A stretch of 63,477 nt of DNA, filler included, from Sluysia triapertura (taxonomy: Eukaryota): the NCBI GenBank assembly GCA_046118255.1. It is 5 parts of 5 records of this genome, joined end to end, with 100 filler letters (N's around TTAATTAATTAA, not from the genome) between each part and the next. Parts side by side here need not be neighbours in the genome. Positions count along the whole stretch, not along the records: positions 41,181 to 52,383 come from JBJNIA010187392.1; positions 52,484 to 63,477 come from JBJNIA010190419.1; 3 more parts are not named here. One strand, 5' to 3'. The position numbers and the translations under genes are program-made. The notes under the pieces were generated by a model. That model ran no database searches. It saw only the letters and a program-made list of their open reading frames with translations, and was not told the origin of the DNA. Below, piece by piece: positions 33,181 through 62,119 of this stretch (positions within the stretch are counted from its first letter, which is position 1; each line of letters starts with the position of its first letter).

Positions 33181-34212
33181 TTAATGGCGATCTCGATGTT
33201 TATCATGGTCTTTGCGATCAGAACGTTTCCTGTGATTATCAAATGGAGAATGCTTAATTCGATCGTCACGCCCTCGATCTCTATCTCGATCACGCTCTCT
33301 GTTAGTTTCAACTGGCGAATGTTTAATACGATCTTCACGATCTCGTTTACTTTCTCGATGTTTACGACGTTCTTTTCTATCACGTTCTTCTGATCGTTTT
33401 CTTCGTTTTCCATGAGATCTGTAGAAACACAATAAATGAAAATAATTAATTAACCTAGACTTAGATCTTCTTCTACCAGAATCTTGATCATGCTTATGTT
33501 CTTGATCTTCTAACTCTTTTTTAATAGCTTTTTCTTTTTCCTGTCGAGCCAATTCAGCTGCCTCTGCTTCACGTTGAGCTTCTTTTTCAAATTCTGCTAA
33601 CATCGCTTCTTGTAAATCTTCATCTAATATCGAAATTCTTGGTTCCAATAAATTCTGTTCCTCCAAAATAAATCGTTTCTGAATTCTTGGTAATATAATA
33701 GAACATACACGATCATCTCGCAATAGTTCCTCAATAAATTCATCCATATGAACTAAAGCAAAACTACCATCTTCGCGCTGCCGACGTAATTTTGAATAAT
33801 CGTTATACAATGTCTCCAGATATTTATATATGTCTATAGAATTACCAGTTAAGCGTAAATAAATAGCCCCTAATGCTCGTGCATATCTAATTAAAAAAAC
33901 GTATTTAAATAGCTGTACTTACTTAAAATCATTTTGCCTGATAAATTCTATCACAATATCTTTTTCTGGTTGAATCTGTAATAATTTTTGCACAAGACAT
34001 AAAAATGGAGTTGGTACATTCGTAGCCCCATAAACTCCACCAATGTACCTTAATTCACAAGATTTATCCACAAGCAATTCTGCATTTAATCCAAAACAAT
34101 CTTCTTTCCAATAACGGCTATCATAAATTCGATATCGAATTACTTTCTCTATTAAATTTTGTGGATTTGTACTGTGTATTGTATGAGCATCTCGTACCGT
34201 AGGGTTTGCCAT
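33181..34212 (-). CDS. PRPF38A: Pre-mRNA splicing factor 38A; exons 34212-33923, 33886-33455, 33418-33181
   Basis: MANPTVRDAHTIHSTNPQNLIEKVIRYRIYDSRYWKEDCFGL...QIQPEKDIV...FKYARALGAIYLRLTG...HMDEFIEELL, then an RS/RD tail. Two GT-AG introns of 36 nt. Confidence 0.97.
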
Positions 34213-35499: not shown

Positions 35500-37560
35500 A
35501 AATAAGATTAAACATAATAAAAGATTAAGTCTGAAAGAATTAATTTAGTCTAAAAATTAATTAAAAATCTTAATTAACTTAATACTAAAAAGTACGTTTG
35601 AATGCAGAATGCTGTGTCAAAGTCGAAACTGTGTATGTATTTGTATTAAAGAGACCTTGACCGAATTCGTGCAAGAAACGCCTTAATGTTGAGTAAAATC
35701 AACTTTTTATTAATTCTTAATTATGAAAGGTTGAATTTTTAATCCTTAAATGAGGAAAAGATAATGATTGAATATGAGATGATTGACATGAAAGAGGAGA
35801 ATTTAAATGTTTGTAAAATGGTTTGTTTGAGAATTAGAAAACTTTGTGTCAAAAAATCGAAAATAAATTAAATTCTAAAAACTACTATTAAATTCATTAC
35901 TTTTTATGTATGTTAACAATATTGTTGATTGTTATTTTAATGTGATAAGTAATTTAAAAGTAGGAAGTAAAAATAGATTGATGAGAGTAAAAGTAAATGA
36001 TGAAAATCAATGAAGTGTGACGAACTATACCATGGATTATTATTACGAAAATCCATGACTATGGATTTTAATTTTTACAATATTTTTTTCAATATTTTAA
36101 TTATTATTAAAACTAACTTTTTCGGGAATCTTTAGTAAACTTTTGCTATTATTAGTATAATTTCTTAAGCTATTTATAAATTGTTTTTGGGGCTTCCTAC
36201 CCGAATTATTTTGAAATATTTTAAGTTAGACATTTGATTATTATTATCTTAATTTTTCTAAAGCTATGTATAATTTGATATTTGGGATACTCCCTGTCCG
36301 AATTATTTTATAAATTTTCTGTTATTAAGTTAGAATAAAATTATTATTTTCAACTTTTTAGTTATTGATATTTTGGTTTTTGTTGCGTCACTTCAGGTTT
36401 CTTTGGACAGATTATTCTATGCCTAATATTGTTGTAAGGATTTTTGCTAATTTTGAGATTTAATCATTTTTAGTTAATTCACTCATATTATGTTAAATAG
36501 GACAACTTTAATAGCTATCTGTATTTGTTTTTGTAATTATTGTATTATTGAGTTATTGTTATTAATTTTAATTGTTATTGATTGAATTTTTGGCCTACAT
36601 AAATATCATTATTAAAATAAGAAAATTTGTTATAATGTTGAGATTGTCCAACTGTGGATCTGGAGACGATTGAAAACATACAAGTTATAAAATAAAGTAA
36701 TAACTGATACAAATTGATGGATTAAACATTATAAACATTGTCGGAATAAGAATTATATTTGTAAAAACATCTATAATAATGTTAACAGCTAAAGAATACC
36801 TTGGTATTACAAAGACCTATATATAATGTCGAGACCTTGTTGAAACTTGAAATAAACTTGGAAAATCTTTGAAGACATTAAGTATCTTTGAGCTTGTTAG
36901 TTATGAGATCATCTAAAACCTTATTAACTCTTAAGTATTCTCGAAACCTTGATAAGCATCTAAGATCTTCGAGTAATTTTTTAAAGTGTATAAAATCTTT
37001 TTTCAAAATAATTAACATGAAGAATTTGAAAAAGGAATAAGAAATGTGACTGTGAAAACATCTAGAGCCTCAATAAAACATTTAAACATAAAATAAGATT
37101 CAGTCTAAAAATAGATTAATTAATTAAAATCTTAATTAACTTAATACGAAAAGTATGTTTTTATGAAAAACGTTTGAATGAAGAATGCTATGTTAAATTT
37201 GAAAAGATGTATGTAATTGGTTTGTAAAGACCATTCGATGTAGGTTTGGTTTGAACGAATTCATGCAAGGAAAGCCTTAATATTGAGCAAAGTCAGATTT
37301 TAATTAATTTTTAATTATGGAATGTGGAATATAATGAATATAATGAATTGAATATGAGATGAAAAGCTATGGAAGAGGAGAATCTAGAAGTGAGTTTGAA
37401 ATGTTTGTAGAGTGGTTTGTTTGAGAATAAGAAGCTTAAAACATTTTTCATTAGAAAATTTGGTGTCAAAAAACAAAAATCAATTAAATTCTTAAAACTA
37501 AAATTAAATTAATTTTTTTGTGTATGCTAAAAATATTAATGATTATTATATTAATGTAAG
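35500..37560. repeat. Two diverged copies (about 35500-35960 and 37085-37560) of an unclassified interspersed repeat
   Basis: Shared blocks such as AATCTTAATTAACTTAATAC, GTTTGAATG.AGAATGCT, GAATTC.TGCAAG and TGGTTTGTTTGAGAAT. Confidence 0.8.
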
Positions 37561-41080: not shown

Positions 41081-41180
41081 NNNNNNNNNNNNNNNNNNNN
41101 NNNNNNNNNNNNNNNNNNNNNNNNTTAATTAATTAANNNNNNNNNNNNNNNNNNNNNNNNNNNNNNNNNNNNNNNNNNNN
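41081..41180. other. Artificial contig spacer
   Basis: N-TTAATTAATTAA-N. Confidence 0.97.
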
Positions 41181-42629
41181 AAGTTATTATTTAGCATTAA
41201 GTGTGAATTTTATAAGTTTATACGTTGATTTTATAAGTTTAAGTTTGAATTTCTATACGTTTTTTTACTCGTTTTCTAAGTAATTTTGATAGGATTTTCA
41301 TAAGTTTAAGGATTTAAGTCTGAATTATATTGATATTTTGATATTTAAGTTAGTTAAAATTTAGTCTAAGTTGTTCATATTTGCATTTTTAAGAATTAAG
41401 TCTATGTTTTATTACATATTTTGTGATTATTCTAAGTTCCCATTAAGTTTAAGCTATTAAATTGTGGATTTTATTAAGTTTAAGTGTCATATTTTGAATT
41501 TTTAAGTCATAAGTGTAAGTTTTATTGCATATTTTTGGTAATTAAGTTAAGTTTTCATTAAGTTTCCCCATTAAGTATTTGATAAGTTTTAGCTGATTTT
41601 CATAAGTCTTCATTTATGTTTAAGTAAGAATTTATAAGTTTATTAAGTTTTTTGAAGTTAATTTGACAAGTCTTTACGATTTTTATAAGTTTAACATTAA
41701 GTTACAAAAGTTGACAGTTATTTTAAGTCGTTTTATAAGAATTTCATTAAGTTTTCATTGCATTTGTTTAGTTTTATTTAATTATTTGAATTTGCATAAG
41801 TTTTAATTAAGTTTTACCCCTAATTTTGATAAAAGTTAAGTTTATAAGTAAGATTTTTCTACGATTTTATCGAATTGAAGTATTATTTTGAATTTTACCT
41901 CAGTTGTTTATAAGTTTTCTTGATTTAATAAGTAAAATTTATAAGTTTTCTGATATTTTGATAAGTTTTCTAAGATATTTGTATGATTTTTCTACGATTT
42001 TGAATTTTGTTAAGGTTTCTGATATTTCGATAAGTTTTCTGTACTATTTTTAACATTACCCATTAAGTTGTACCTTAATTTTGATTATAAGTTTAAGTTT
42101 TACAGTTTATTTCATAAGTTACACAAGTTTTAAGTTTGATTTCAACTCTATTTTATTGTCATTAAGTTTAAATATATTGATAAAAGTTTCCCTGATTAAG
42201 TTTTATAAGATTTTGATTTATATTTGTTGTTATTTTCCAAGTTTAATTGAATTTCCAAAGTTTTCATGATTTAAGTTTAATTATAAGTTTATTTAAAGTT
42301 TGTTATTAAGTTTGACTTTACTGATTGAAGCTTCCTTGATTAAGTTGTATAAGACTTTGATTTATATTTGTTGATATTTTCCAAGTTTAATTGAATATCT
42401 AAGTTTAAATATCTAAGTTTAAGATATTTGATTTCGATTTGAATTTTTATCCCATTAAATTTGTATTGAAGTTATTAAGTTTTGATATTTGACTAAGTTT
42501 ATCTTTATTTTGATAAGTTATAAGTTTATATTTAAGTTTTTAAGTCTTCAAAATTGACACACGAATTTTAATTGAATTTACTAAGATTAAAAAAATTCTA
42601 GAAGAAATCACTCCAAACAAACTAATAAG

Positions 42630-43720
42630 ATGTCTTTACCTATAGAAACATTTAGAGACTATGCATCAATGTGCTAAAGATATTAGGCCTAAAGATATTT
42701 GAAGAACTCTATTACTTTCTTTTTGAGTATGATAGTATTGCAGAGGCAAATGGCTGGACTGAAATGGAAAAGATTAAGCGTATACAAAATTACTTAACTG
42801 GAGTTGCAATCCAGACTTATAAGGAGATAGATAACGATTATAAGCAAAAATGGCAAGAGTTTGTAAATGCCTTCACTGAAGAAATAGCTTTCGACGATAT
42901 AGGTAAGTATTATATTAGGATGCTCAATACATTAAAACAAAAGAGAAAGGAAACTGCATATGAATTTGTTTGCGTATTAAAGTCTTTAGTAGTTAGAGCT
43001 AAAATTCCTAATGATAAAAAGGAAAGTGTTTTAATTGATAAGTTAAAAAATGCCTGCGCTCAGAGTTAAGAGCTTATGTAGGTCTAATTGATGATTTACC
43101 CTTTAGAAATATTGTTAAAAAATTAAGGGTATCGAGAAATATGGAGCCGAAGAAAAAGATAGTATAAGTTACGTTAGTGATAACGAAGATAATTATAAAA
43201 ATAGAAATTGAGTCTCCAAGATTTGAGCGTAAGAACTTTAATTTTAATGATGGATATGATAATCATTTAGATTATAGAGCAAATAGTTATAGTAATACTA
43301 ATCCTAATTTTAGAGAAAATAATTCTAATTACAGAGGCAATGATTTTAACAGATGAAATAATTTTAGAACGAAAAGAGCTCCAAGGTATGATGATACTCA
43401 TGGAAGTAGAAATAATTTTAGAGAAGATAACTTTCCAGCTTCTAGAAATAATAATAATTATGGTTTTAGAAGTAATAATAAAAGTTCAGGCTTTAGTGGT
43501 TACGAACAAAGACCTGCACCGCGTTGGCCAAGTTCGGCTGGTGAATATGTTGATCGACAAAATAATAGTAGTAACACTAGAAAAAGGAGTCCTACTAAAT
43601 TTAATGATAATTATAACGTTGAGGTTCAGACAAACGTAGAAGGGAATTTAATATTTAGTAACTGTGGTAGCAAGGTCACTTTGCTAGAAATTGTAGGAAG
43701 TTAAGGGCTGATACTTTTAA
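42630..43720 (+). pseudogene. Retrotransposon gag (frameshifted)
   Basis: FLFEYDSIAEANGWTEMEKIKRIQNYLTGVAIQTY...WQEFVNAF is a capsid signature. An N/R/G-rich linker follows, then the knuckle remnant NCG..QGHFARNCR at about 43660-43700. Confidence 0.8.
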
Positions 43721-45248
43721 TCAAAATCTTACTAAATGCAAGATTATTCGAAAGGGACAGGCTCGAATAGAAAAGTAAGGTTTGATGACGTTAAGAATAA
43801 GAATAAGGGACAAATAAATTATAATTATAATAAAATGAGAATAGTTACAATAATTATGATGAAGAAACGCACGTAGATTATGATTCCGAAGAAGAAAACT
43901 ATAGGAGAGCGACGAAGTATACTAAAAGACATAAAGATGGATTTGTTAATGCGTTCTATAGAATAAAATTAGACGGTGACAATGATGATACAATTGAAGT
44001 AGATATAATAGACAAAAAGAAGAAGATGCATTTATAAATTATATGTGCGAGTATTATCTTGAATATTTAAAAAGAAAACAAGAATTGAAAGATAAGGAGT
44101 TAGAAAAGGAGAAAATGAATAATAAAAATCAAATAGATCACAATAGTAACAATTCGAGTTTAACATCAGATGAGAATACCTACATCGATTCTATTATCAC
44201 TGAGGAAAATGATTCGAATAATAATACTGAATTCAATTTGGAAAAAGATAATACAACGGATGTGGAATCAACAACAAGCAAATATCTCGAAACAAATTCA
44301 ACAATCAGTGAAGATGAAAGTTCGAGTATAAGTGAAGATGAAGGATCAAATGCAAGTGAAATTAATAATTCGAACGTAAGTGACGAAGTCATTTTAGAAA
44401 ATGAAAGTGAACTAGAACTAACAATTGTACCAGCTAATGAAGAGAAGAAATTAAATACACCAGAGTTAACTACAAATGAAGAAATTAAGGCATTTCAATT
44501 AGATTTAAATCATGACATCTAAAATGCGACAAATATTGATAAAAATTTAGATAATTTATTCGATTCATATTTAAATATACGAAATGGACAATATTTAGTT
44601 CTATTAAGTAAAGACAACAGCCCATTTAAGTTTGAAGCAAGAAAAGTAACAAGGAAAATTGGCCAACTAGAAAGAGTTGAAATACCCAAATCATTAATGA
44701 ATGTTAAGATAATAATTAATGATTTAATGAATGCTGATATGGAATTGTCAGTTACTACAAAGGTTGAGGAGATTATTAAATTAATTAAGTTAAATGATCC
44801 GCCAATGAGAGATTATACTTTCACGATATAAATTTGTTACCAGATAAATTTTTTAATAATTACGATTACCCTATTGAAATTTATGGAGAAGCATTGAAAG
44901 CTTCTATTCGCTCAGAAAGCCAATTGATAATTTGATTCCGTGTGAGATTGTTATTTACAACATTGATTTAGATAATTTTCTTCATTCATTTAAGAAGCAA
45001 CTGATGGGTGATGACGATAATGTAGTTAATATTATTAATGATAATAATTATAATATTGATAAGAAACCTGAATGCGTACTAGATTTAAATGATAACAAAC
45101 TATAAAGAAATTAATACTTTTAAAAGAGAACCTAGTAGCTTAATAAAAGTTGAATATAATGATGATATAACAGTTCTGAATCCATTTCATAGAAATGCCA
45201 TAGATTTGAAAAAAAATTATTTACGATAACTTAAATAACGAACTTCAT

Positions 45249-45745
45249 TTGAATATGAGAAGTTTAATTTATGCATTATTCTCCGATAAATTTGATCATT
45301 TTGATCAGTTTAAGAAAATACTGCCTACAATAAAAGACTGTGGATTTGCATTAATTAAAATAATGAAGCAATTAGATGAAAACTATATGCATAAAAACAT
45401 AAGCAATTTTATAGACACAAGTAGATATAAGTTGGTAATTAATAAACAAATAAACTCGGATCTAATTAAAGAAAGGTTTAAAATTATAATTACTTACATT
45501 GTATTCCAGTAGGATAAGGTAGAAAAATTCACAAAATAATAAGCTTTATAGAGATGAAATTTAAGTTGAAGATAGACATAATTAAACAAAATATTGAGTT
45601 GTATTGTACCAAGATTAGGAAATCTTGCGAATGGTATTCATTTTACCATTATACTATTCACCATGCTCAAAATAAATAAAACAAAAGGAACGAAGGCATT
45701 TGAGTTTAGTCAACTGTATACAGGAAGAAAATTTTCATTATTAGA
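45249..45745 (+). pseudogene. Highly degenerate integrase-like remnant
   Basis: MRSLIYALFSDKFDHFDQFKKILPTIK resembles the zinc-binding domain. ILFTMLKINKTKGTKAFE...LYTGRK resembles 'LFAYNT...STG.SPFELLYGR'. Confidence 0.4.
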
Positions 45746-46540
45746 TAATGAAGATAGTTCCGAGCCAAAATCTAATAAAATAAGGATTAAGGATAGAATG
45801 TTATTTAATAACATATTACCTCCTTTTGTGCTAACTTCTAAAATAATGTCGGATATATCAACACATTCTTCAGAAGATTATTTTAAATTCTTCCTTTGGT
45901 TAAAATTAATTAAACTATTAATTTTAATGTAGTTTATACTTCGAAATTAGGTAGTAAAATAAAAACATGAGCTAAGCAAGACACAAGACAAGCATTGGAT
46001 TATATGACTTGTGTATCAGTACTTGCGCAATCATTACATAGGAAAAATAAACTTGATACTAAACGAGATTTAGGTACTAACAATAAAAATATCACAATGA
46101 AGAAATTAATCAAGCAATCAATCTAATTCCAACTAATATTAAATATAGTTTAATATTACGATTATACAAAATCCTGCTTTTTATTTCTCATATTACTCTA
46201 TCCATATAATGATCTTTATACTTTTCACTCTGCTTTTGACCAATCTTACGATTGGAGCTATTAGATTCAATCTATTTTTAACACGACAGCGTAAACATGC
46301 TCTAGAAGTTTAGGAAAAGTATATTCTTCGTTTAAATAAACGGCCGGTGGAAGTGGCATCACTATTAACCTGGTCTTAATTACTCGAAAATATACAATAT
46401 CTTTTCGTAGCATCACCGAAAAATACGTTAATAATTTTGGGAGTTTGTTAATTTTCCATTAAGTTTTATTAAATTCATTTAATTCCACTTAATTCCTTTT
46501 ATGATATTCATTTTTATATCTCTTTAATTTCGTTTCAGTT

Positions 46541-46998
46541 ATGAGCTTTTATCGCTGCTCATTCTACCTTAGGCTTCTACGCAAATATGAAGCTTGTGTG
46601 ACAACTTGCACCCATCGCTTCCATTTAAGGTGTATCTTTTTTCTGTATGATAATGCGCCTACTGATTATCCTTCTTGTCCCTTAAGTAGATCAACCATTA
46701 CGTCTTGCAAAATTTTATACAAAAATCGATATAAACACCAATATATACAGTTCAAATTTCATCTTCATCATCTATGACACTTACTTCATTTTCTATTGCT
46801 GTTTCTCAACCTTCTGATAAAACTTGCCTTCATTCAACTTCCACTTCTAATCCGCAATTTATTAAGCCACCTGCTTCAAACCCTTCTGGCCTCACAAAAT
46901 CTCAAAAGCGACATAGGCGGAGGAGAGAGTTGAAACGTTTCTACAAGGCCAATGGTCTTTATAAAAACGAAGGAATAATAAACCGAATCCTTTCTTGA
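46541..46998 (+). pseudogene. Accessory RING-H2 protein with Arg-rich tail, copy A (degenerate, one frameshift)
   Basis: CSFY...TCTHRFHLRC...SCPLSR, then GLTKSQKRHRRRRELKRFYK. Homologous to 55946-56393. Confidence 0.75.
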
Positions 46999-47166
46999 AA
47001 TACACTGGTATCTTCTAATTTTCTCTTTAAATTACGTATTTAGTTTACGTATAAATGATAGTTTATTAATAAAAATAATTTACCCTTATCAATTTTTGTG
47101 TTGCTTGTATTTTATTTTGTAATTATGTTTTTATTTTATTTTTATGTATATATCATGTAATTCTAG

Positions 47167-48168
47167 ATGTCACAACCCAATGGCAAAGTCTTTTTTCAAA
47201 CTAAAGCTTTTTATGGAGGCATTGACCGCTTTTCTAAACATAATGTCCCTTCTACTTCATTTTTAAATTCTAAATCAACCTCTAACCCTCTTAAATCTGA
47301 AATTAATGAAAATTTTGCCACACATCTTTTTAGTTTATCGTTTACTTTCCCATCAGTTACTATTAATGAATTACTATGTTTTCCAACAAATCACAGTTTT
47401 ATCATTTTGGCAGCCTCACTAGGTGTTCTCAAAATTACTTTGACAATTAATTCTTCCCATCTTCTTTTTCGTCTTTGAAACTTGACAATGTTTACCATTC
47501 TCATACTGACGAATATCCCACAACATTTGCAGCGCTTTTTCCTTTCCTCCCTAGGAAGTCGAAATCGTGTCTTAATCCTTTACATGACACCGATGTACAA
47601 CATTTCGACGCATAGTAGGAATATTTAACTTTCACCCATATTTCCGTTCTTACCCATTTTTGAGGAGAACAAATTAATCCTTTTGGCATTTCACCACCTC
47701 TTAGATGTCAGTTATGAACATCAAATTATTCCGTTAGGTTTCATGTCCTACCATAGGAAATTTCATTCTATTGATATCATAAGACCACGAGTTCGCGTCC
47801 AACATTTTTACAAAGAAATACACGGACTAAACGAACAAAATCTAACATCGGCTAAAGACATTGAAGACATTAAGAGCTTTTGGCTCGCATCACTGTACGA
47901 CAAATTCTTGGTTTGTCTCTATCCCGAATTAGTTGTAAAAACATTAAATATTCCTTATGGCTGGTTGAGAGGAATAGTAAACCTCACCAACACCCATCCC
48001 GTGTCTTTTTCATCTGCCGATCCAATTATAAGGGGGAAACAAGTTTTAAAGTTACTATATCCATCTTTACCTAAAATGTCTTGTATGGATCTCATTCAGA
48101 ACTCGATTTTATTGTGTCGAGATACTAATGCTAAATTTAATTTATGCTGTGAGTCCTTACAATCTTAG
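47167..48168 (+). pseudogene. Accessory ORF-X, copy A (unknown function, disrupted)
   Basis: Colinear protein-level similarity to 56508-57450 across its full length. Confidence 0.75.
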
Positions 48169-48654
48169 ACTTATTCACTCAAGGGCTAAGTTGTAAGCAG
48201 TATTTTAGAAGAAATTAGATGGAGGTATAAGTAGGCTTATGTTAAATCAATTATGTTTTTGGGAAAAATGTGTTTATGCGATGCTAATTTTGGCTCTTTT
48301 AAGAAGTTATTAAATGTTAATCAAAAAATGCTCAAACTACAGTTAAAAAACTTTTATTATGTTTCATTTAAATACAAATGTTATTTTAAGTTATATTTTT
48401 CAACCGTATTTCAAAAACGGTAAGCCTTAAATACAAATCTATTCTTTAACTATAAATTACGTCCGATTAAAATCGGCGACCTTATTTTAGCAATAAATAA
48501 AAAATCTTTTTAAAAGGATATATTAACGAATTGACAAACGCATAATAATAATTTAGTTAACTTTTTACAAAGAATATTTAATATAAATAATAATTTTATC
48601 TAGATTAATGTATAATCTTTAATGTACATGTTATTAAATTATTCCTCACCTCTT

Positions 48655-48666
48655 AAAAAGGGGGGA
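48655..48666 (+). other. Polypurine tract, copy A
   Basis: AAAAAGGGGGGA about 490 bp after the last ORF. A canonical TG LTR start is not evident. Confidence 0.55.
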
Positions 48667-49893
48667 TAAAAATAATTAAAAAATAAATTAAGTATAGAAT
48701 TTTCAATTAATTAAAAATGATTCTAAAACTTATGCAATTCAAACTAACGGTTAACAGAATAAAATTTGTCAAAGAAATTATAATTCATGGATTGACTGAT
48801 TTGTCGAGAAAGTCGAATACGTAATTCGAATATTGAATCTTTTAAAATACGTTTGATAAAGCTGCGATAATTTTTGCATAACAATTCTTGTTGTTGAGCG
48901 TTTATAAAGAACTTGTGATTACAATGTTGTGTGATTTTTGTGAACATTTCATGTTTATATATATTTTTAATTTGTCATTGACCGAATAAAAGTTAATTTA
49001 TTAAAATAAAAGAATTTTGGAAATAATATTGATAATGATTTTAAAAATAATAATTGATAAAATATGATAATAATAAAAACAACAATAATAAAATAATAAT
49101 AATAATAATAATACCAATAATAATTAGGTTAACTATTTTTAACTAAATTATTTTAAAAAATCAAATAAAACTATTTTAGATATAAAAATCGATTATTTTA
49201 TTCATCTATATACACATAAAACTGTACATATTATTTATTTTTAGATTTTCAGATACTTGACATAACTTTCCCATACGGAAAAATTTGTCTCTAATTTTAA
49301 AATAATTATTATTATTAACATATAATTCAAAGTCAGAATCACTATCTAATAAAGTGATGACGGGTATGTCGTTATCACAACCAAAAAATTCATTATCATT
49401 TAAGTTTTTTCCCAATACACCGTAAATGTCATCGTCGCTGTCAACTAGATCGACATTTGGCGAATTCCTTTCTGCTTCTTGATGATTGTAACTTTCTCCG
49501 GCTGTTTGGTTCAGACTTTCTCTCAGCTTTGGTAGATTTTGTTAGGCGTTGATGTGACTTCGAAGATATTTTGGTGTTATGTCTCGATGTATTATTTGTA
49601 TGTTGTTTGTGAGGTGAAAAAGGTATAGGCTTATCAATGTGAGGAAATTCTGTGCAGATTGTGTCTTTGTTAGAAGATATAGATGAGGAAAAGAGGAAGA
49701 AAGCAAAATTAAAGGAGGAATAACTTTTGAATTATCAATTTGTGGCAAAAAGGAATTGTCCTTACTTTGAATTAAATCAAATAATAAGATGAAGTCTTTG
49801 GCGTGTTGTAGACTAAGTCTAAGTTGCGCAATCTAATAATCCTACAGAAGTTCATGAACAACATAACTTTTGTATCGAAGGAGTATTTAATAA

Positions 49894-50660
49894 GTGTTTG
49901 GTTTCAAATTGTCTAATAATGAATACCGATTTCGAAGTGTATACAGACTTACCGAGTCTGGGTCAACGGAAGCCATCATAGTGTTACCAGATAATTTAAA
50001 ATATATTGCATTAAAAAATGTTAGACACAGACTGCTCCTGTTAATTATTTTCGAGAAACTTTTTTTGTTCAATTTGAGAAATGCTCTGATTATGACTTAG
50101 TAGACGTATTAATGATCTACCTACCTAATAGTAAGTGTTCTATTGATTTAATGTTCGAATTAACTAATTTAAATCACAAAGAGATGTTAATTATGTTTAA
50201 TCGTGATAAATATTTTATATTTGACCATTTAGCCAAAGATATTATGCGAACGTATGATCTAGTATCTTATGTACTTGATGTAAACATAATACCAAATAAA
50301 CTGCCTTTTAAAAAATTATACAGTTATAAAAGTGACCAAATGGAACAAGAATGCGTGTTAGAATTGATTAATCAATTAATTTTAAAATTGATTAATTTTG
50401 AAAAATAAGCTCTACGAGTATTGCCTTATACGAAAACATTCTGTAATTGAAGTCATGCAATACTTCCCTCAAACCACACGCACATTTGGCACTGTAGTAT
50501 GGGTAAATATAATTCCATTTATACGTAACCGAGAATATTCCATAGCTAGTTCTTCCATTTCTGACATAACATTAGACATATTAGTTGCAAGGGTTCAATT
50601 TGAAACTAAAGCCATGTACTAAAGAAAAAGATTATGTTCGTCATATTTGTGTAATTTTCT
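49894..50660 (+). pseudogene. NDOR1: NDOR1-like diflavin reductase FAD-binding domain fragment
   Basis: DVLMIYLPNS...LVSYVLDVNIIP...LYEYCLIRKHSVIEVMQYFPQT...IPFIRNREYSIASS...LDILVARVQFETK..*RKRLCSSYL parallels NDOR1. Frameshifts and an in-frame stop are present. Confidence 0.8.
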
Positions 50661-52139
50661 GACATGCTTAATATTTTGTTACTCGTTGTGAAATAAATGA
50701 AATAAGTTTTTATTTTGTTATTTGCTGTTCATTTAAAGAATTAATCTTAGGCCTTAAGCCTACTGTTCATTCGAGTCTAAAACAATGAGTAAGGACCTTA
50801 AGTCACATTTTAGCAAATTAATTGTAATTATTTTAAATAATTTCTTTTTATTAAGAATTTTTCAATTAATCACAACCCTAACACTAATATTGATGATAAT
50901 GTTAAAGATTAAAGATCAAAGATGTACATGAATGTAAGAAATAGAATTAATAAAATTTTTTAATTAAAATGAATAAAACAAAATAAAAATTAATGGATTT
51001 TAATAATGCATTTTTAATGAAATATTGAAATATTAATAGATTTATTTTATTAATAAAGTAATGGATCTTTAATGGATTTTCAATTAATAATAGTAACTAA
51101 TGAATATCAATTAATAATGAACAAAACTAATGGATTTTTATCAATGAAATTTTATTTTAATGAATAATGGATTTTTATCACCAAAAAACTAATGGATTTT
51201 TAAAAATAAATTTTAACTAATTGTTTTACAAGGTATATAATATTAATATTAGAACTCACACAATTAGAGAGAGAACCAGTTAAAAAGAAAGTTATTCATT
51301 TCTGCATCAAGTGGTCGTCAAGACATTACATCCGTAATACCACATAAATAAAGTTTCAGTGAACAAAATTATACTTCGTTTCGTATATTTAAGTAGTAAG
51401 TTAATTTACTTCTATTTTTATGTAGGGATTACAAAATCTAAATTCTAATCTTTAAAGTTAGTTCTTAAATCGAATTATAAAATCATTGAATTATAAAAAT
51501 AAAGCCTCAAAAACTTTATTTGCTTTTGTTGTTATTATTATTATTGTTAATATCACAAGCATCATTAACATTTGTATTTGAACATTTTCGTAAATTATAA
51601 ACTAAACTATGTATTGATAAAAATTCGTGTGTTATTTTTTGTATATTAATATTAAATAAGAGCTTCGTCAGTTAAGAATTAATAGACCCTTATGTGAGGA
51701 GATTATAAAGTTCTGTAGGTGCGCCAACATAAGACGTTCACTACAGGCGGACCCAATTAAAAAATTAAATTTATTATGCAAGAAAAACCTTAGTAATAGT
51801 ATACAACAGATTCGTATATCTACTCGAGCTCTACGTCAGCATTTGCATCATAAAGTTATCTTAATCTTAAATATAGGTGTTGTATATTCACTAGCCATTC
51901 AAAAACAATTAACATAGAATAAATGAAAATTCTATCCTCCAGTTAAGAATATGTTTAAAGATGAAGTTACAAGTAATCTAGTCTTAGAATTCGATGTGCT
52001 TTATCAAATGATTCCAAAAGCAATCAAAGACGGCTCAATTTGAGTGCAATAGAATACACTAGTTTAATACTTATTAAGCTGTTAGGGTACTTAAGAGTTA
52101 GGGTATATAAAATATTTTGTTAAAAAATTGAATTAAGAA

Positions 52140-52383
52140 TAAAAACTATTAATAATAATCATAATTATTGTTGGGATTGCCCAACTGTGGATCTGGAGAT
52201 GAATGAAAACATATAAAATTAGGGGAAAACATTATTGGAATAAGAATCATGAGAGTAAAAACATCTATAATAATGGAAAAGGAGAATTCATAAGTGAACT
52301 CAAAACGTTTATAAAATGGTTCGTTTGAGAATAAGAACCTTAAAACATTTTTCATTAGAAAATTGGGTGTGAAAAATAGAAAA
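52140..52383. repeat. Third, internally deleted copy of the 35.5-37.6 kb repeat family
   Basis: CCAACTGTGGATCTGGAGA block (also at about 36648) joined to the GTTTGAGAATAAGAA.CTTAAAACATTTTTCATTAGAAAATT block (also at about 37418). Confidence 0.8.
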
Positions 52384-52483
52384 NNNNNNNNNNNNNNNNN
52401 NNNNNNNNNNNNNNNNNNNNNNNNNNNTTAATTAATTAANNNNNNNNNNNNNNNNNNNNNNNNNNNNNNNNNNNNNNNNNNNN
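52384..52483. other. Artificial contig spacer
   Basis: N-TTAATTAATTAA-N. Confidence 0.97.
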
Positions 52484-54199
52484 TTCAAATAATTGAACCT
52501 TTTCAAATGTAATTAATTTTGCTTTGGTTCTTTCTCGAACCTTTTCTTCTTTAATTATGCAGATTTTAAATCAATAAATATAATTCAAATTTTTATTACA
52601 CAAAATTTAACTTTTACAAAGATGCGATTAGTATTATAATAATATAAAGATTTTTACAGAGATGCGATTAGTATTATAATATAAAAATCAAATAATAACA
52701 AAATTTTACAAGGGATTATTTTGTATGATAATCCTAATTTTAATGAATTTTTTAAATAGATTTTTCTTAGTTTCTCTTATAAGAAACTTTTAATTTAATA
52801 ATGATTTTGAGTGTGATTTTACTTGGGCAATTATTAAAAATTGCCAAAAACTTATATAAATAGACTAACAATTAAAATAATCAAGATCTGGTGCCACAAT
52901 AATGTTGATGCCACAAGAGCTGAAACTGTTGTCACAATAATTGAAGAACTTGGTACAAAAATCTCGTTGTTCACGTTACTGGAAAATGGCTAATGAAGAA
53001 GCTCGAAAAATAATTTGTAAGAGATGCTGTCTTGCAAAAATAATTTATAAAAATGTTGTGTTGATCTTGATTATGTTAAGCCTATTTATACAATTTTTTG
53101 CTTATTAAAACAAAAAATTTTTATTTTTAATTAAATGAAAATATGAATAATTTTAACAATTTTCACTAATATAGAAATTTTAATAATTTAGAATATAAAA
53201 ATAATAAATTTTTATTAAAATAATTTTTAATTAAATGATTTATTAAAATATGAATAATTTTAACAGTTTTCATTAATATAAAAATTTTAATAATATAATA
53301 AAAATTATTTAACAAACAATAATACACTTACATTATTATTTGGACGATAATTTCATAAATTAATTTTTTAAATTTCTAATCAATTTTAATAAATTTCCAC
53401 GTAAACTTTAAAATAATAAAATTTTTAACTAAATTATTGATAAATGTTTAACTAAATTATAAATTATTTATAAATTGAAATAAATTGTATTGATAACTAT
53501 TATTTATGAATTAATTGATAAAATTAGCTTTTAAGCTTTACATTATTTATGAATTAATTGATAAAAATGAATTAATTGATAAAATTAGCAATTGATAAAA
53601 TTAGCTTTTAAACTTTACACTATTATATAAAATTAGGATTTTCTAAAACTTAACATTAATAATTACTTTTGCATGGAGTCTTGACTTGTATATTTTTCTG
53701 TAACACTATTGTCGGAACCAAAGTCGATCGGAATTTTCTTTCTCGCGTCAAATTTTGGATTCTTCGTGTCAAATCTTTAATTCTGAAAAATTACCTAAAA
53801 TTTCCTCTATTTATATAAAATTTGCTTACCTCCATTTTTGTTTGTTTATTTTGATCTATTTCCTTTTTAATGTGTTAAAACAAATTTTAAAATTCATTAT
53901 ATTTATTTATTTATTATTATTAATTTGTTTTATTTTGTTAATTTATCTTAGTTATTTTATTCTAAATATATTATTAATTTATTTTACTTTATATAATAAA
54001 AATATTCATTTAAAATTACACAATACAATGCTATAAATTATCAAATATCAAATACTAATTTAAAATTATAAAATACAATAAAAATACAAATAACCATATA
54101 AATGTAGTTCATAATCAAATGGTTTATTAATTATCATAGCCAAAGTTCATGATTGAATATTGAATATGACACCAACACAATGAAGTAAAAGTTAAAATA

Positions 54200-54710
54200 T
54201 TGACTAAAAACATTCATGCCAAATTTGCATGTTTGAAACCTGCCAGACTTAACTTTAGCTCATGGGTTATATGCGAAAATTATATTGATAGTGAATTGAG
54301 ATATCCAGTCACGGTTTGCTCAGATATTTTACCTGTCGAGGATAGACGTATTATAGTGAGATTCCGTCACTCATCAAAATACTTGAATTTTGCATTTAAA
54401 GGAACAAGAAAACATTTAACGATATTGGAGATATTACGGAATGATCCAGCATTCGTGATATTAATTGTGGCGGCAATACTGTTCGTAATTGCTTTAGCTC
54501 TAGTGGTATTGGTTATTATTATGTTTGTTTCGAATAGATGTCGATACTCATGCTAACCACATAACAATAATAATGACGATGACGACGCGTACACAGTTCC
54601 GCACAGAAACAATTACGCTCCTCCTCCAGGTATGCCAATAATTCCACCTCCAATTTATGAATATGCTACAAATAATCAAATCCCACTCATATACGGAGAC
54701 TGGCAAATGA
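54200..54710 (+). pseudogene. Single-pass membrane protein with Pro-rich cytoplasmic tail (PPxY)
   Basis: Hydrophobic run AFVILIVAAILFVIALALVVLVIIMFV. Past one TAA the frame continues ...YAPPPGMPIIPPPIYEY. Confidence 0.6.
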
Positions 54711-55702
54711 CTCAAGTAAAATATACAATTCTGATATGTATCTATCAAGCGCAAATTATTTATCAGAAAACAATACACCTAGAATAATTTTGGTAGCCAC
54801 TCAGAAAGATATTTATGCTAAGATATTAACATACAAAATTAAATTATTTTCCGTTAAAATAAAATGTTGTATAATGGATTGGTGCGAAATTGAAACAAGA
54901 GCAAGTAAACAGGATTTCTATTAGTTTATCTTGCATTGATCTTGCCGAATACCAACTAATTAGCGTAATAATAACTATAGAACTAGAATATGACCCTCAG
55001 AGTGATTCCAGAACTATCTTGATACGGTATTACAATATAAGAACTAAACCATTTGTTTTCCGACAATCTTCAACAGTAATTGAGTTTCCAATGATCATAT
55101 ATCGCTATCTCGGAAATGTTATACGTATTCATAACCCGTTATACAATAACACGTTGATAATTGCGTACGAACTATCTGACGGTTTACGTTACGGAATGAT
55201 ATTGCCTAATGATACTGTTCGTCTATATCACATCGCGACTAATAGACTCATGTTTATCAAATTTTGGATATTGAGAAAAACAGAATTACATGATGTAAAA
55301 GGATTTTGGCCAGCAATAAGATATCACGATATACAACTGCCAATTATAGATAAGTACGAAAATGACACGAAATCACAAAAAACGTCCAAGAATGATAACG
55401 CTACAAATATATTTCATGATAGGAATAAGAATGTTAATTCTAATACAACCAATAGGAACAGAAGTACAAATGCGAATATCACCAGTATAATTATGACTGT
55501 AAGTAAGGAAAATATTGAGTACCCAATTATAGTGAAATCCAACAATAATTTGATCATAACTATAAACTACATTTTAATATTAATTTCTCTAGTAACATTA
55601 ATAATTAATTTTGTTATTCAAAAATTTTACATGTTTATTAGGCAAAGAGCCCATTTTTTCATATATGTTTTCAATACATATTGCATAATTGACCACATGT
55701 AA
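54707..55702 (+). pseudogene. Probable type I membrane glycoprotein (frameshifted N-terminus)
   Basis: Beta-rich ectodomain, stalk with NAT/NTT/NRS/NIT sequons, and C-terminal hydrophobic LIITINYILILISLVTLIINFVI. Confidence 0.5.
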
Positions 55703-55945
55703 TGGCATTCCCAATCATTTTGGGTCATATGTAATATTAAAATCATAATTAAAATTAATTTTGTAAATATATTAAGGATCGTGCATATGACTGTATGTGA
55801 TGGTTTACTATCATCTCGAGTCATGCACTAACTAAAATATTACTTAAAATTTTTTTTATATAAGTTTAAGATTTTTTAATTTTTCTAATATTATTTATTT
55901 ATTATCTTATTATACATTTTTATTTTTTAGTTAGAACAATCAGCA

Positions 55946-56393
55946 ATGTCTTTTTCCACATGTGCCATTTGTCTCCGTTCTCTTCACAAATACTTTTCTA
56001 AAACTTCCCCTTGCTTTCACCGCTTTCATTTCTTTTGTTTCTACCATCTCTTCGAATCCTCTCCATCACCTTTACCAAGTTGCCCCTTATGCAGAGCCAC
56101 TATTAATAAGTGCGACATTTATTACAAACGCTCCTTCCGACGGTCGTACGAATTAACAGACGACTCGGAAGAGCCCGGTATTGATGTATATCAACCGGCA
56201 TCGCCTATAAAGGAAAAGAGCCTTAGTAAGAATGGATGGGTAAGACCTCCCCCCTAACTTCTCATCAGGTTTATCCAAATCACAAAGACTCAACAGACGA
56301 AGGCGTCAATTAAAACATTTTTATAAGGAAAAGGAAACAAATATGTCTAAAGCTTCGAAACCTATTAATACCTTTTTAAAAAGAAAGAATTAG
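55946..56393 (+). CDS. Accessory RING-H2 protein with Arg-rich tail, copy B
   Basis: Complete C3H2C3 motif CAIC...PCFHRFHFFC...CPLCR. A 1-nt shift in the C-run at about 56250 continues into GLSKSQRLNRRRRQLKHFYK. Confidence 0.8.
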
Positions 56394-56507
56394 TTCTTCT
56401 TAACTTATTTTATTAGATTATTATATGATTTTAAAAATTGACAAAAATAGTTTACTTATTTAATTTATTTTTCTTGTATAATTTTTATTTTCCTTCCTTT
56501 TCTTTAG

Positions 56508-57937
56508 TCACATCCAAGCAAAATTACTTGACCAACAAAAATTTTTTTATGTATTTATCGACCGATACTGCCATGTAAGTATTACCCCTGCTTTTTTCTG
56601 TGACTCGGTCTCGACACCCAACACCTTAAAATCGGAACTTAATATCAATCTTGTAACCCATATATTTTCATTAAAATCCGAATCTCCATTTGTTTCGCTT
56701 GATGGTCTATCACAAGTCCCAGAAACTACTTAGTCGTTGCCAGAGGTGTTGTAAAAGTCACTTTAATAGACAACGGCGCGCCATTTCTGACTCGTGTTCA
56801 TGGCTTCACTTCGTTACACATTACTGATTTGGACAAGAATTGTAACGTGATAATTGAGGCAACAGAATACCCACTTCAATCGCACTGCTTTTCCATTTGC
56901 TTCCATCTACCTTCCAATTTTTTCTTCCAAATTTGTATAAAAATGATACAATAAACTTGGCACGCTGGCAGATCGGGACGTCTTTTACTCATGTTTCCCC
57001 GATGACTGCTTACGACGAAGATCGTCTAGTCTTTGTGGCTTATTCCTACACCCACGATTTTCTTAATCGCCCGCACTTAACTCAATTGTCTTGTACCCCT
57101 TATTCGAAATAGTTTCATACTGATATCAACATTAAACCTCGTCTCCGAATAAAGAATTTTTTGAGAGATCCAGGAGATCTCCGAGGCTAAGGATATTGAT
57201 GATGTCCGCCCCTTCTTACTGGGTCATCTGCACGATAAAATCATGGTGTCTTTGAACCCATGTTTTATCATTAAAAGCCTCGATTTGCCTTTTGGTTGGC
57301 TTAAGGGAGTCATTAACTTAACCAATCATAACCTACTTTCTTATACAACTGACGTTGCCATTTTACGTGGACGGCAAACCTTTAGATTATTATATCCCGT
57401 AACTGCTCACGGATGGCTTTTGAGTTGGTTTCACTTTTGGATCTAATCCGTGAGAGGGATTTGTCCCTCTTCCCTAACTGCTCTTTTTCTCCCTCTTCAC
57501 TCTTTTCTAATTCTAATACTACTAATAATATTTTCATGGCATCATCAACATCATCATCAGTATCAGTACCAACACCATCCTTAGTACCTGCGTCATCATC
57601 AACATCTATATTTCCATCATCAGTGACACCTATGTCGACAGCACCAACTACATCATCGTCAGCGAACCCCGCCAAACCTTCTGAGCCTCGACCGACCAAA
57701 CAACCTACTACTCGGTATCCATCACCAAGTCCTACCCATATACCATATGGCGAGAATACGTCCTTTAAACCTTGGAAGAAAGGACGATACCAATCCATGA
57801 CCAGCCTATCCGTCACCCTGGGACGACGACAGCGATGTCGATTTAGACAATTGATATGTTACTTTAACAGTTTCATGATGATTATATTCATGAATACTAT
57901 ATTCACTTTTTATTCACCTTTTATTATATTATCATGA
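56508..57937 (+). pseudogene. Accessory ORF-X, copy B, with Ser/Thr/Pro-rich tail
   Basis: Shares LKSE.N.N..TH.FSL, FTH.S..T, AKDI.D, P.GWL.G..NLTN and RG.Q...LLYP with copy A. Several frameshifts and stops. Confidence 0.75.
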
Positions 57938-59769
57938 TTTAACATTCTATTGACTTAGGTGATTCGATTCGAGACGAATATTCCCTGACGGGGAAGTAAA
58001 TGTAAATATTTAAATCATGTAAATTTAATTTGTAAATATTTAATAAATTACAATAATAATCATGTAAATTTAATTTGTAACGTAAATTTAATTTGTAAAT
58101 ATTTAATAAATTATAAATAATAAAATAAATACTTGGTCCATTATTGTTTATAATATATCAATGATGTTTCAAGTGTAATCGAATCATATGGATTTAAATA
58201 CCATATATATACTGATGATTATTATTATTATCAGCACAAAAAGGCAAACTTGCGAAAATAAAACATAATGTTAAAGAGAAAAATCAAAGGAAAATCAATT
58301 AGTTGAGAAGTATCCATTGATCAAATTTTTCTAAGATGCGATTAGACTATTTAGCTATTAAACATTTTGTCTGTGGTTATTGTGTAAAACATTTTTGCAC
58401 AGATTTCTTTGACAAATTAATCCTATTAATTTAAAAACAATTTGTATAAATTAACTTGTTGATACAAAATGAATTTTTATGATTATCAAAGAGAATTGTT
58501 TGATGTTTTTTGTCTTGCTAATTTAATCTATTAATAAGCAAAAGAAAGGGAATTGAAGAATAAAGTTCAGATGAAAATAAAGTTTGAATAAAGTTCAGCG
58601 ACTAAAAAATTTCAATAATTAAGAATTAATACACAAACAATATTATCACAAACAATAACAATATTATCAGCTATCATTTATTAAAATTACGTCAGTTACA
58701 TATTTATTATGATTATATTTTATTTATTTTATTACAAATTTATTATGACTTATGGTATTTTATTTTAAATATTATAGAATATTATTAATTTAAAAAAGTA
58801 TTTATAAAAATTCATTATTAAATATTTTAATATTACTTATCGACGTAAATAAATATTTGCTTATTTCAAATTTCAAAAAATGTGCTATTCTAAAAATATC
58901 TTTTCTTGTTTAAACATATCAATGAAAAAAATTAATAAACAAGATGGCGAAGATGAATATATAAACATTGGAATTTACAAGCAAAGGCACAATTTTTTGG
59001 ATAATAATTGTAACAATATCTTCGACCATATTCTTGCAAAAACAATTTCATGTCACAGTAAGGCTATTTGTTAATTTTTTTATTTATTTTTAAAATTAAA
59101 TCGTAACAGCATAAGAGTTAATTCTTAAAGCCAAAATCATTATTACTATTATAATTGTTTATAATTTTACTTAGTGTTTTACTTTGTAGATAATACATGT
59201 TTAAGATAGTAATAATTTTGTTTTTCTTTAATTAGTTAAATTACTGAATATACCTTGTCAGACCATAACAGGCTGACTTAAAATTTCATACTTTTTAAGT
59301 TACCTGCACTATAGAACTTGTAATTTGTTCGTCCAGTAATTTTCGCAGTTACTTCATTATATTTTCTTGCTTATTAAAATCCTAACTCGAATGCCTTCAT
59401 TCTGATATAAGCTGTATCAATTAGGTGTACTCACCTTCGGAAATTTTTCTGTAAGTTTAGATTAAGCTTCTACAAGATAAAATACTTGCATAAGTGTAAC
59501 GAATAAAGTTAGAAAGATAAAATTAAAATTACAACGTTTATTGCAATTAATATATTAAAGAATTTGTTCTTAAGTAGAATATTTAGAGAAAGAAGAGTCA
59601 AAAGTCATGAAGTTTGATCATTTTGTAAAGGTAAGAATTAAAGAGCAAAATTAAAATCAATACGTTAGACAAGTAAAACCTAAATGATATTTTAAAATAG
59701 AGTAGAGCAACAAAACATACTAAATAATTCACCAGGAGCATACACACTAAGAAACAAATATACAAAATA

Positions 59770-60400: not shown

Positions 60401-62119
60401 AGTAATATTTCGCTGAAAAAGAAAAGTATGCATTAGGAAAGAAACAAGAAGATGAAAAGACATTTATAAATTATATGTATGGAAAATTTCTTGAACATTT
60501 AGAAAAGACGATTATAGTAGTAGAACAAGACTCAATTACAAATAAGCAAAATAGATAGAAAATATTGAAGAAATAATATCATTGCCAAACGTTTCCATTC
60601 ATAATATATGCAAACAGTAAGTTATATTCAGATTCCTTGTTCTTTTTCTTCCTCTTCTGCACAACACATTAACATACAACAAGAAACACAATCATCACAC
60701 AATATCTACAAACACACTGAAGAATACTATTATTTAAAATATATGTTCGTCATATGGAGTCTAAAAAATTGTTAACATATTAATGTTGAATTAATAAATG
60801 TTTGTAACATTATAAAACAAAATTGTCTTTAATTTAGTTGTGAAATTTATGTAATATACTTTTAATCACCGTTTTGCTGCAATATTTTGTCAGCAAGAAA
60901 CCAGCACTTATTAATCAAGTCAAATTATGACAAGTTCTTTTATATTATTCACTTTAAATTAATATTTTCTAACATTATACTTTTCATATAACAATCAACT
61001 TAAAGTTTTATATGATTTTCTCTCATTTTAAAAACTTCTAGCATAGAAAAACCATTTTTAATGTGCATATTTTGATTAAATCATTCCTACATTAAGGATT
61101 CGTTCTTTTTAAGTTTCTGGTTTAAAATAATAATTTCCTTTGTTATTTCCGTTAATTTATAATTTAATTTAATTTAATGTTTTAACATTGTTCATTAATT
61201 GTATATTTTATCACTTCAATCCAAACTTATTTTACAACACATATTTTAATTAGCAAATGTACTTTCATCGATTTTACACTTTATTGAAATAACATCTTAA
61301 GTATTCTTTATCATTCATAAAACATGGAAATATTGAACAGATTATTCATCGTATAACAGTTCCTGGATCTTTTCAAACCTTTCACATACCTTTATTTCAC
61401 TCCACTCCAGTTTCACCATTTATTACCATCAATATAATATATACTTCAAATAGCTACTCAAAAATTATTTAGTTATCTTTATTTTATTATATTTTTATTT
61501 AAAAAATTTATATACAATGACCTTCACGGTTACTTTTTTAATGTAAGAATAATATAGGTTATCTTTCATTAATTTTATACAAAGAAAATGCAAAGGTTAT
61601 GTACTGAAAGGTCTATCCTTTTTGTCTGGCATTTATGACAACATTAATAGCGGCTATTATAATTCGCTATTAGATTCGGAATTGTGATATTATTTCTGTA
61701 ATATGATGCAAAGGAACATCTCCAAATGAACATCCAATACGTCGGTAGCAATTGATGATCCATTTTAAACATCAAAATTTAAAGAGTTACATAAAACCTT
61801 TTCATGAGCTTGAGTCGACTTGTTCCTATAAAGAAGTAATAGATTTTAAGCACGAATACAAAACATTAAATATTAATTTTTCTTGTAAAATAATTAACAT
61901 TCAAAATGTGAAATTAACTGTATTAGAATTATTGGTAAATAAGTTGTGAGTGCGGTGTCAAATATAAAGCTTTACTATTCTTATAATTATTGTAATCAAT
62001 GGTAGATTAATAATTACATTATTAATTATTATTATTAAATTATTATTAATTCTATAATAATTATTATTACTATTATAATTAGTTTTATCAAATTCCGTAA
62101 TTATTTTTATTATTATTAA

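Follow-up and report, generated by a model that had tools for sequence, protein, structure and literature searches.

We analysed a window of 63,477 nucleotides from Sluysia triapertura (GenBank assembly GCA_046118255.1), meaning the whole stretch of DNA considered here, which consists of five AT-rich contigs with N spacers between them. Two of the contigs each carry a pair of genes in the same order, namely a gene for a RING-H2 protein with an Arg-rich motif followed by an open reading frame (ORF) that we call ORF-X. The two copies of this cassette, A and B, have the following features.

46541-48168 (+): gene-pair copy A, RING gene then ORF-X
46541-46998 (+): RING-H2, Ser/Thr linker and Arg-rich gene of copy A; frameshifted, 6 of 8 zinc ligands remain
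47167-48168 (+): ORF-X of copy A; N-terminal half plus predicted degenerate ISG20/REX4-type DEDDh domain (47659-48165), interrupted in the middle
55946-57446 (+): gene-pair copy B, RING gene then ORF-X
55946-56390 (+): RING-H2, linker and Arg-rich gene of copy B; frameshifted, all 8 zinc ligands present
56508-57446 (+): ORF-X of copy B; several frameshifts, one stop and a short deletion relative to A
57386-57937 (+): Ser/Thr/Pro-rich ORF, no match in A; possibly the C-terminal tail of ORF-X B

A first-pass annotation of this DNA had described two units on different contigs, colinear as proteins and barely similar as DNA. The N spacers at 41081-41180 and 52384-52483 confirm the separate contigs, and the four peptide blocks it quoted were all found, in order. 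Performing blastn between the two contigs, we find no DNA match between the cassettes, the sole A-B match lying elsewhere. The second pair had been drawn out to 57937; copy B is alignable to A only to about 57446, and the remainder belongs to the Ser/Thr/Pro-rich ORF. The copies share gene order and spacing (626 nucleotides from RING start to ORF-X start in A, 562 in B) and are 43% identical in amino acids across 282 codons. In a translated comparison, the ORF-X blocks are colinear (E=6e-9, 0.002 and 5e-19) and the Arg-rich motif matches at E=2e-4, while the RING, Arg-rich, ORF-X N-terminal and ORF-X C-terminal blocks each score above 2000 of 2000 shuffles. Frameshifts or stops interrupt all four ORFs, and both copies are now decayed.

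We checked how the two copies diverged at the codon level. Identity at codon positions 1, 2 and 3 was 0.56, 0.68 and 0.40 (282 aligned in-frame codons; Fisher p=1e-9). Over these codons the proportion of synonymous differences (pS) was 0.78, which is saturated, and that of nonsynonymous differences (pN) was 0.36. Bootstrapping gave 95% intervals of pN/pS of 0.40-0.54 for all codons and 0.42-0.60 when limited to the 195 codons of ORF-X, in blocks picked by protein similarity. Since protein identity and shared order and spacing persist at saturated synonymous sites, the alignment clearly points to purifying selection on the cassette proteins, conserved through saturated synonymous change. This supports the protein-level selection proposed earlier; a ratio of nonsynonymous to synonymous rates of about 1, named at the time as the case against it, was not found along the A-B path in this two-copy comparison.

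RING B contains a full C3H2C3 RING-H2 domain (Pfam zf-RING_2, E=2.6e-7, 31.2 bits versus a cut-off of 27.3), and two of the eight zinc ligands are replaced in RING A. The two domains align without a gap at 47% identity. Each is followed by a Ser/Thr/Pro linker and then by a basic Arg-rich motif, which is conserved more strongly than any other part of the cassette (46870-46950 and 56250-56330, +; 62% identity over 26 codons). This block shows a faint REV match (E=0.1) and may serve in RNA binding or as a nucleolar signal. E3 ligase activity is a general expectation for RING-H2 proteins and is predicted here.

ORF-X had not been recognised in the first-pass annotation. We now identify its C-terminal half, and its N-terminal half remains without a family match. 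A language-model search gave the first pointer to DEDDh exonucleases, which we used only as a lead. Searching a profile of window pieces against 1.84 billion representatives, we obtained six matches, three of which are true relatives: P0001 (365 residues), P0002 (176 residues) and P0005 (562 residues), all unnamed single-member clusters on contigs below 2 kb. P0003, P0004 and P0006 were dropped as repeat proteins, matching through 7-8 short stretches. Residues 14-326 of P0001 align with both ORF-X halves (E=4e-22), and P0005 has a long Pro/Ser/Thr-rich tail, as copy B may have. Residues 198-365 of P0005 match human ISG20L2 over the whole domain (168 residues, E=5.3e-7) and ISG20 (E=2e-5), these being its two matches. 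Against PDB, all three matches of the family profile A3 are DEDDh proteins (PolC exonuclease, ISG20L2 and ISG20). The model of A's domain (predicted local distance difference test score, pLDDT, 57.8) finds its best structural match in human ISG20 (Z 7.2, root-mean-square deviation 3.1, 95 aligned; reference structures PDB 1wlj and 7yw5). Foldseek places ISG20L2 at the top for this model (E=4.7e-3) and PolC next, and the poorer P0001 model agrees with it. The sequence match carries this predicted assignment, the structural scores being middling. By homology, then, the C-terminal ~170 residues of ORF-X are assigned to the ISG20/ISG20L2/REX4-type DEDDh exonuclease domains, in a catalytically degenerate form. 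Word-indexed homolog searches with the C-terminal piece of ORF-X A gave no homolog among 283 and 40 candidates, and an alignment search gave 2 of 7994, both of them relatives already found. Pattern-based locus scans of metagenomes returned 0 of 353 for ORF-X and 0 of 115 for gag.

To map the active site, we transferred the ISG20L2-P0005 alignment through the family alignment. Four sequences cover the ExoI site, namely A, B, P0001 and P0005; all of them have Ala for the ExoI Asp, and in place of the ExoI Glu they have His (A), Ser (B), Gln (P0001) and Ser (P0005). The position of the ExoII Asp is hydrophobic in five of five sequences. The ExoIII His is missing from the family; for the ExoIII Asp, two registers of the alignment, one residue apart, give either a loss or a retained Asp/Glu. 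At least three of the four catalytic acids and the general-base His are gone from the ORF-X domain. We consider it very likely from these residues that ORF-X is nuclease-dead, and it appears to be a derivative of the DEDDh family and not an active member. Because the Ala is common to all four sequences, the catalytic loss would reflect a single old inactivation, not the decay of copies A and B.

The N-terminal half is conserved in A, B and P0001 (E 2e-6 to 8e-17). Reading ORF-X as two tandem DEDD domains was rejected (hhalign 0.9%). An AlkB ORF is present in orchid Gypsy elements (PMC9289625, cited from excerpts). We compared the N-terminal half with the AlkB/2-oxoglutarate-Fe(II) oxygenases, obtaining no Pfam or PDB match. 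Against E. coli AlkB, hhalign gave 0.2% with a single-sequence template, and this region of the model has a pLDDT of about 30. The fold search covered only residues 189-305 and so barely probes the N-terminal half, for which an oxygenase fold received no support.

We checked the surroundings of both cassettes for parts of a mobile element.

42630-43700 (+): broken Ty3/Gypsy-type gag of unit A, with capsid region and zinc-knuckle remnant
44855-44932 (+): aspartic-protease-like motif, seen by eye; no Pfam or relevant PDB support
45584-46070 (+): integrase-like motif, seen by eye; no Pfam or PDB support
48655-48666 (+): polypurine-tract-like run AAAAAGGGGGGA, 490 nucleotides past ORF-X A; one of three such plus-strand tracts in the window
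54170-54757 (+): membrane-protein ORF 1 upstream of RING B; transmembrane segment (hydropathy 3.6), PPIY in its tail; broken, multi-copy, no Pfam family over E=0.27
54875-55702 (+): membrane-protein ORF 2 upstream of RING B; 7 N-glycosylation sequons, C-terminal transmembrane segment; multi-copy
57990-57996 (+): 7-purine run, then TAAA and TGTAAA; weak polypurine-tract candidate of B

In unit A, the leader and gag are followed by an acidic stretch, some 2 kb of decayed coding sequence, RING, ORF-X and the polypurine tract, with about 6 kb from gag to the tract. Copy A thus lies downstream of gag, as had been claimed; this gag matches Retrotrans_gag at E=9.7e-4 and keeps a zf-CCHC knuckle remnant at E=0.093, both under the Pfam cut-off, and four of its six weak PDB matches are to the Arc capsid (E 0.58-1.8). 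By their motifs, 44855-44932 may be a protease remnant and 45584-46070 an integrase remnant, unconfirmed by Pfam or PDB. Unit A would be an internally deleted Gypsy-type element. The earlier statement that a polypurine tract lies just downstream of each pair was not borne out as worded: A has such a tract, and B has the 7-purine run. The two membrane ORFs ahead of RING B have no family match in Pfam, NCBIfam or PHROGs; the PPIY tail of the first is presumably late-domain-like. The contigs start within repeats, so a 5' long terminal repeat (LTR) may be off-contig. A 48-nucleotide AT-rich match (55729-55775 / 58000-58043) was not accepted as an LTR pair, as it does not extend, and the window contains no tRNA gene. 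The T-rich leader ahead of gag (41181-42629, +) is made of degenerate TTAAGTTT-like units, is high-copy in run X1, and includes a 103-nucleotide direct repeat (42156-42258 / 42300-42402). A piece of the post-gag coding region of unit A (44012-44075, +) recurs on contig B, 2.5 kb past the cassette (60444-60508, +), as a 65-nucleotide, 78% DNA match.

Cassette regions A and B are both multi-copy. Run X1 holds contigs identical to the window at depth 15-23 and many divergent contigs over each gene. Distinct X1 contigs per site number 11-23 at the listed ORF-X A sites, 19-29 over RING B and 5-17 over ORF-X B, and divergent pieces over RING A show 54 differences in 361 bases and 48 in 432. X1 depth is well over the single-contig level throughout 54092-58111. 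Summed depth is not copy number, and the multi-copy state is read from divergent contigs of one run. Most related X1 contigs are free of at least one interruption seen in ORF-X B, so the ORF breaks look copy-specific.

All four ORFs start 0-16 nucleotides past a pyrimidine-rich YAG. We scored such sites by a crude home-made measure, the pyrimidine fraction before YAG, over the 1167 plus-strand YAG sites of the window (median 0.50). Three of the four sites fall in the top 3%, with scores of 0.79 (RING A), 0.62 (ORF-X A), 0.75 (RING B) and 0.92 (ORF-X B).

46509-46538 (+): 3' splice-acceptor-like site before RING A; 0.79, reached by 1.3% of the 1167 sites
46999-47166 (+): T-rich spacer from RING A to ORF-X A, 52% T, 18% GC; acceptor-like YAG abuts the ORF-X ATG, 0.62 equalling one PRP38 intron
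55901-55930 (+): 3' splice-acceptor-like site before RING B; 0.75, reached by 2.9% of the 1167 sites
56391-56507 (+): T-rich spacer from RING B to ORF-X B, 57% T; 0.92, the strongest acceptor-like site of 54000-58000 (0.88 is reached by 0.1% of the 1167)

The host PRP38 splicing-factor gene (33181-34212, -; E=1e-44), with introns below 40 nucleotides, served as reference, and two host introns score 0.62 and 0.75 on the same measure. This spliced gene also marks the host as a eukaryote, likely an animal. An acceptor-like site before every ORF fits separately spliced accessory genes, and RING and ORF-X may be made from separate spliced or leader trans-spliced messages, each with its own acceptor. 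ORF3s of LTR elements typically come from spliced messages (PMC5408684, cited from excerpts).

On balance, we regard A and B as two decayed representatives of a gene pair that is conserved and multi-copy and that probably forms the 3' accessory cassette in an old lineage of Gypsy-type LTR retroelements. That the cassette is retroelement cargo is likely, the evidence for its link to a retroelement being fair in copy A and indirect in copy B. The old family of complex retroelements proposed in the first-pass annotation is thereby upheld as to the multi-copy state and the gag and polypurine tract at A, and is left without LTRs, an intact pol or any retroelement core gene on contig B. Several observations weigh against the reading we favour. 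For neither unit did the window yield an LTR pair or a primer-binding site; no reverse transcriptase or RNase H was found, and the protease and integrase remnants were seen by eye only. The gag match of unit A is under the Pfam cut-off, the purine run of B is weak, and no gag or pol was seen beside B in a Pfam scan of its long ORFs only. Summed depth over cassette A (337-1001 in three bins and the preceding bin) overlaps that of the 3' flank (96-1241), X1 is possibly the source sample, and the comparison with P0001, P0002 and P0005 is one of protein sequence. The N-terminal half of P0005 has no detectable match to A, B or P0001. The choice of selection blocks by protein similarity biases pN/pS down and inflates the effect. 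Finally, both structural models are of low confidence (pLDDT 37.8 and 57.8), the A-domain model has 21 chains at Z of at least 5, neither model has a match at Z 8, and no Foldseek match reaches E 0.001.

If the spacer were an intron, the pair would be one spliced gene for a PML-like fusion (RING, linker, Arg-rich motif, unknown part, DEDDh) with the dead exonuclease as the substrate- or RNA-binding arm of an E3 ligase. Such a gene would account for a T-rich spacer with a terminal acceptor in both copies, for a GT in A that lies a few codons past the RING stop in phase with ORF-X, and for the lack of an in-frame ATG at the corresponding ORF-X start of B; PML unites a RING-bearing N-terminus with a DEDDh domain (PMC10123124, cited from excerpts). 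We find a single gene improbable, however. The RING ORFs end at about equal length (458 nucleotides in A, 445 in B), A and the independent relative P0001 share a Met start at one aligned position, donor candidates in B are weak, and like acceptors precede the RING genes too, so that acceptors here mark gene starts. The pair might instead be captured or duplicated host genes, such as a host restriction module, passively amplified in or beside retroelements and useless to them. Aligned to P0001, the ORFs show no gaps of intron size, and only three relatives among the 1.84 billion representatives is unlike a conserved host gene. Moreover, 43% protein identity is not expected of passive cargo in two synonymous-saturated lineages that are each multi-copy and broken. 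We therefore hold a host origin of this kind to be quite improbable, even though the exonuclease domain is of the cellular ISG20L2/REX4 type, no LTR pair was found, no retroelement core gene was seen at B, and vertebrate RING and DEDDh proteins restrict retroelements (PMC10123124).

A remnant of an endogenised virus or of another non-LTR mobile unit, with the membrane ORFs of B as possible glycoproteins, seems very improbable to us. In arenaviruses, the RING protein Z is paired with NP, a DEDDh exonuclease, and the C-terminal domain of arenavirus NP is the top language-model look-alike of ORF-X (score 0.92, 139 of 256 features; 0.76 for P0001); two membrane-protein ORFs also stand ahead of RING B. 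However, 139 common features is under the tool's same-family level, ISG20, ISG20L2 and PolC outrank NP in sequence and fold matches, and no related locus turned up among 180 and 17 pattern matches in viral contigs. The splice acceptors and the link to gag are in keeping with a nuclear retroelement.

Within the retroelement reading, the pair would probably help the element against host defences, and a specific shield-plus-ligase role in counter-defence is doubtful. The fuller proposal, which we regard as unlikely, is an undescribed complex LTR lineage that bears envelope-like genes and carries a two-part counter-defence on separate subgenomic messages, in which a nuclease-dead ISG20/REX4 mimic caps RNA ends or recognises them and steers a RING-H2 ligase against host silencing or restriction factors. 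In the reading that we favour, the element would make two small accessory proteins, each from its own message via its own acceptor. ORF-X would keep the nucleic-acid-binding cleft of ISG20/REX4, gripping ends without cutting, and could shield or escort the element RNA or decoy host 3'-5' exonucleases. The RING protein would be an E3 ligase, guided to RNA or to the nucleus by its Arg-rich motif, that ubiquitinates host factors and may rely on ORF-X for its targeting.

The closest described cargo is the DEDDy-exonuclease ORF3 of the bdelloid rotifer Juno/Vesta LTR retrotransposons and Terminons (Rodriguez et al. 2017, PMC5408684). As in ORF-X, a DnaQ-fold 3'-5' exonuclease gene is there a separate 3' cargo, typically on a spliced message. 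However, according to the excerpts, their enzyme is a DEDDy protein of the RNase D-like type whose catalytic residues are intact, whereas ORF-X is predicted to be ISG20/REX4-like DEDDh with these residues lost. ORF-X also has an extra N-terminal half and a RING partner gene, and the word 'ring' occurs 0 times in the main text of PMC5408684. The C-terminal domain of ORF-X resembles ISG20, ISG20L2 and REX4 in sequence and predicted fold, but it has lost the His and no fewer than three of the four catalytic acids, and it sits in a mobile-element setting. Maelstrom and EXD1 are inactive DEDD derivatives that keep RNA binding (excerpts of PMC5408684). Together with Exuperantia (PDB 5l80; Z 5.4 against the A-domain model), they share a DEDD fold without the canonical active site and may be, by analogy, a precedent for an RNA-binding role of ORF-X. 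They differ in being host genes of other DEDD branches, none of them element-encoded and none with a specific ORF-X sequence match.

The planarian Burro/GYPSM elements are giant Gypsy elements whose accessory ORFs include AIR1 'with RING Zn-finger', MATH/TRAF, BIR, SUMO-like and env homology (PMC6431247), and the likeness is a Gypsy-type element with accessory ORFs and ubiquitin-related domains. Their domains, in contrast, lie mostly in an ORF1 of ~4,900 residues, and section 7 of PMC6431247 names no exonuclease or stand-alone RING-H2 gene. Burro is ~30 kb long versus the ~6 kb of unit A, which is decayed and probably internally deleted. Compared by domain description, the Burro ORF1 domains (MATH, BIR, BCL2, ankyrin and the in-frame env) have no match in the scanned window ORFs, unit A being decayed. 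PML and Plex9 of jawed vertebrates are host restriction factors with RING-type and DEDDh functions and ubiquitin-dependent degradation (excerpts of PMC10123124). They likewise combine the two functions in retroelement conflict, but on the host side, in a single polypeptide and with an active nuclease in fish, whereas here there are two genes, a predicted dead nuclease and apparently the element's side. No description of a RING and dead-DEDDh ORF pair was found in the literature searched, part of it as excerpts; an unannotated version could be present in repeat databases (Repbase/Dfam) or supplements. LTR elements with exonuclease cargo are already in print, and the pairing of a dead DEDDh domain with a RING gene is apparently new.

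To our knowledge, few animal retrotransposons encode counter-defence proteins. The cassette offers two small, nameable proteins for tests of RNA binding, ubiquitination and silencing suppression, a putative pseudo-nuclease of an antiviral and RNA-processing enzyme family and a predicted RING ligase, both apparently under selection. Invertebrate LTR elements may use several separately spliced accessory genes, like complex retroviruses. If the counter-defence proposal is true, the machine would be an element-side mirror of host PML with its RING and DEDDh parts.

Elsewhere in the window, 3' of unit A, a 127-residue ORF (50025-50408, +) has a weak FAD_binding_1 match (E=2.3e-4, under the cut-off). 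Very high-copy short repeats include a 111-nucleotide pair at 37369-37479 / 52273-52383 (83%) and those at 58112-58379, with summed depth above 190,000 in two bins.

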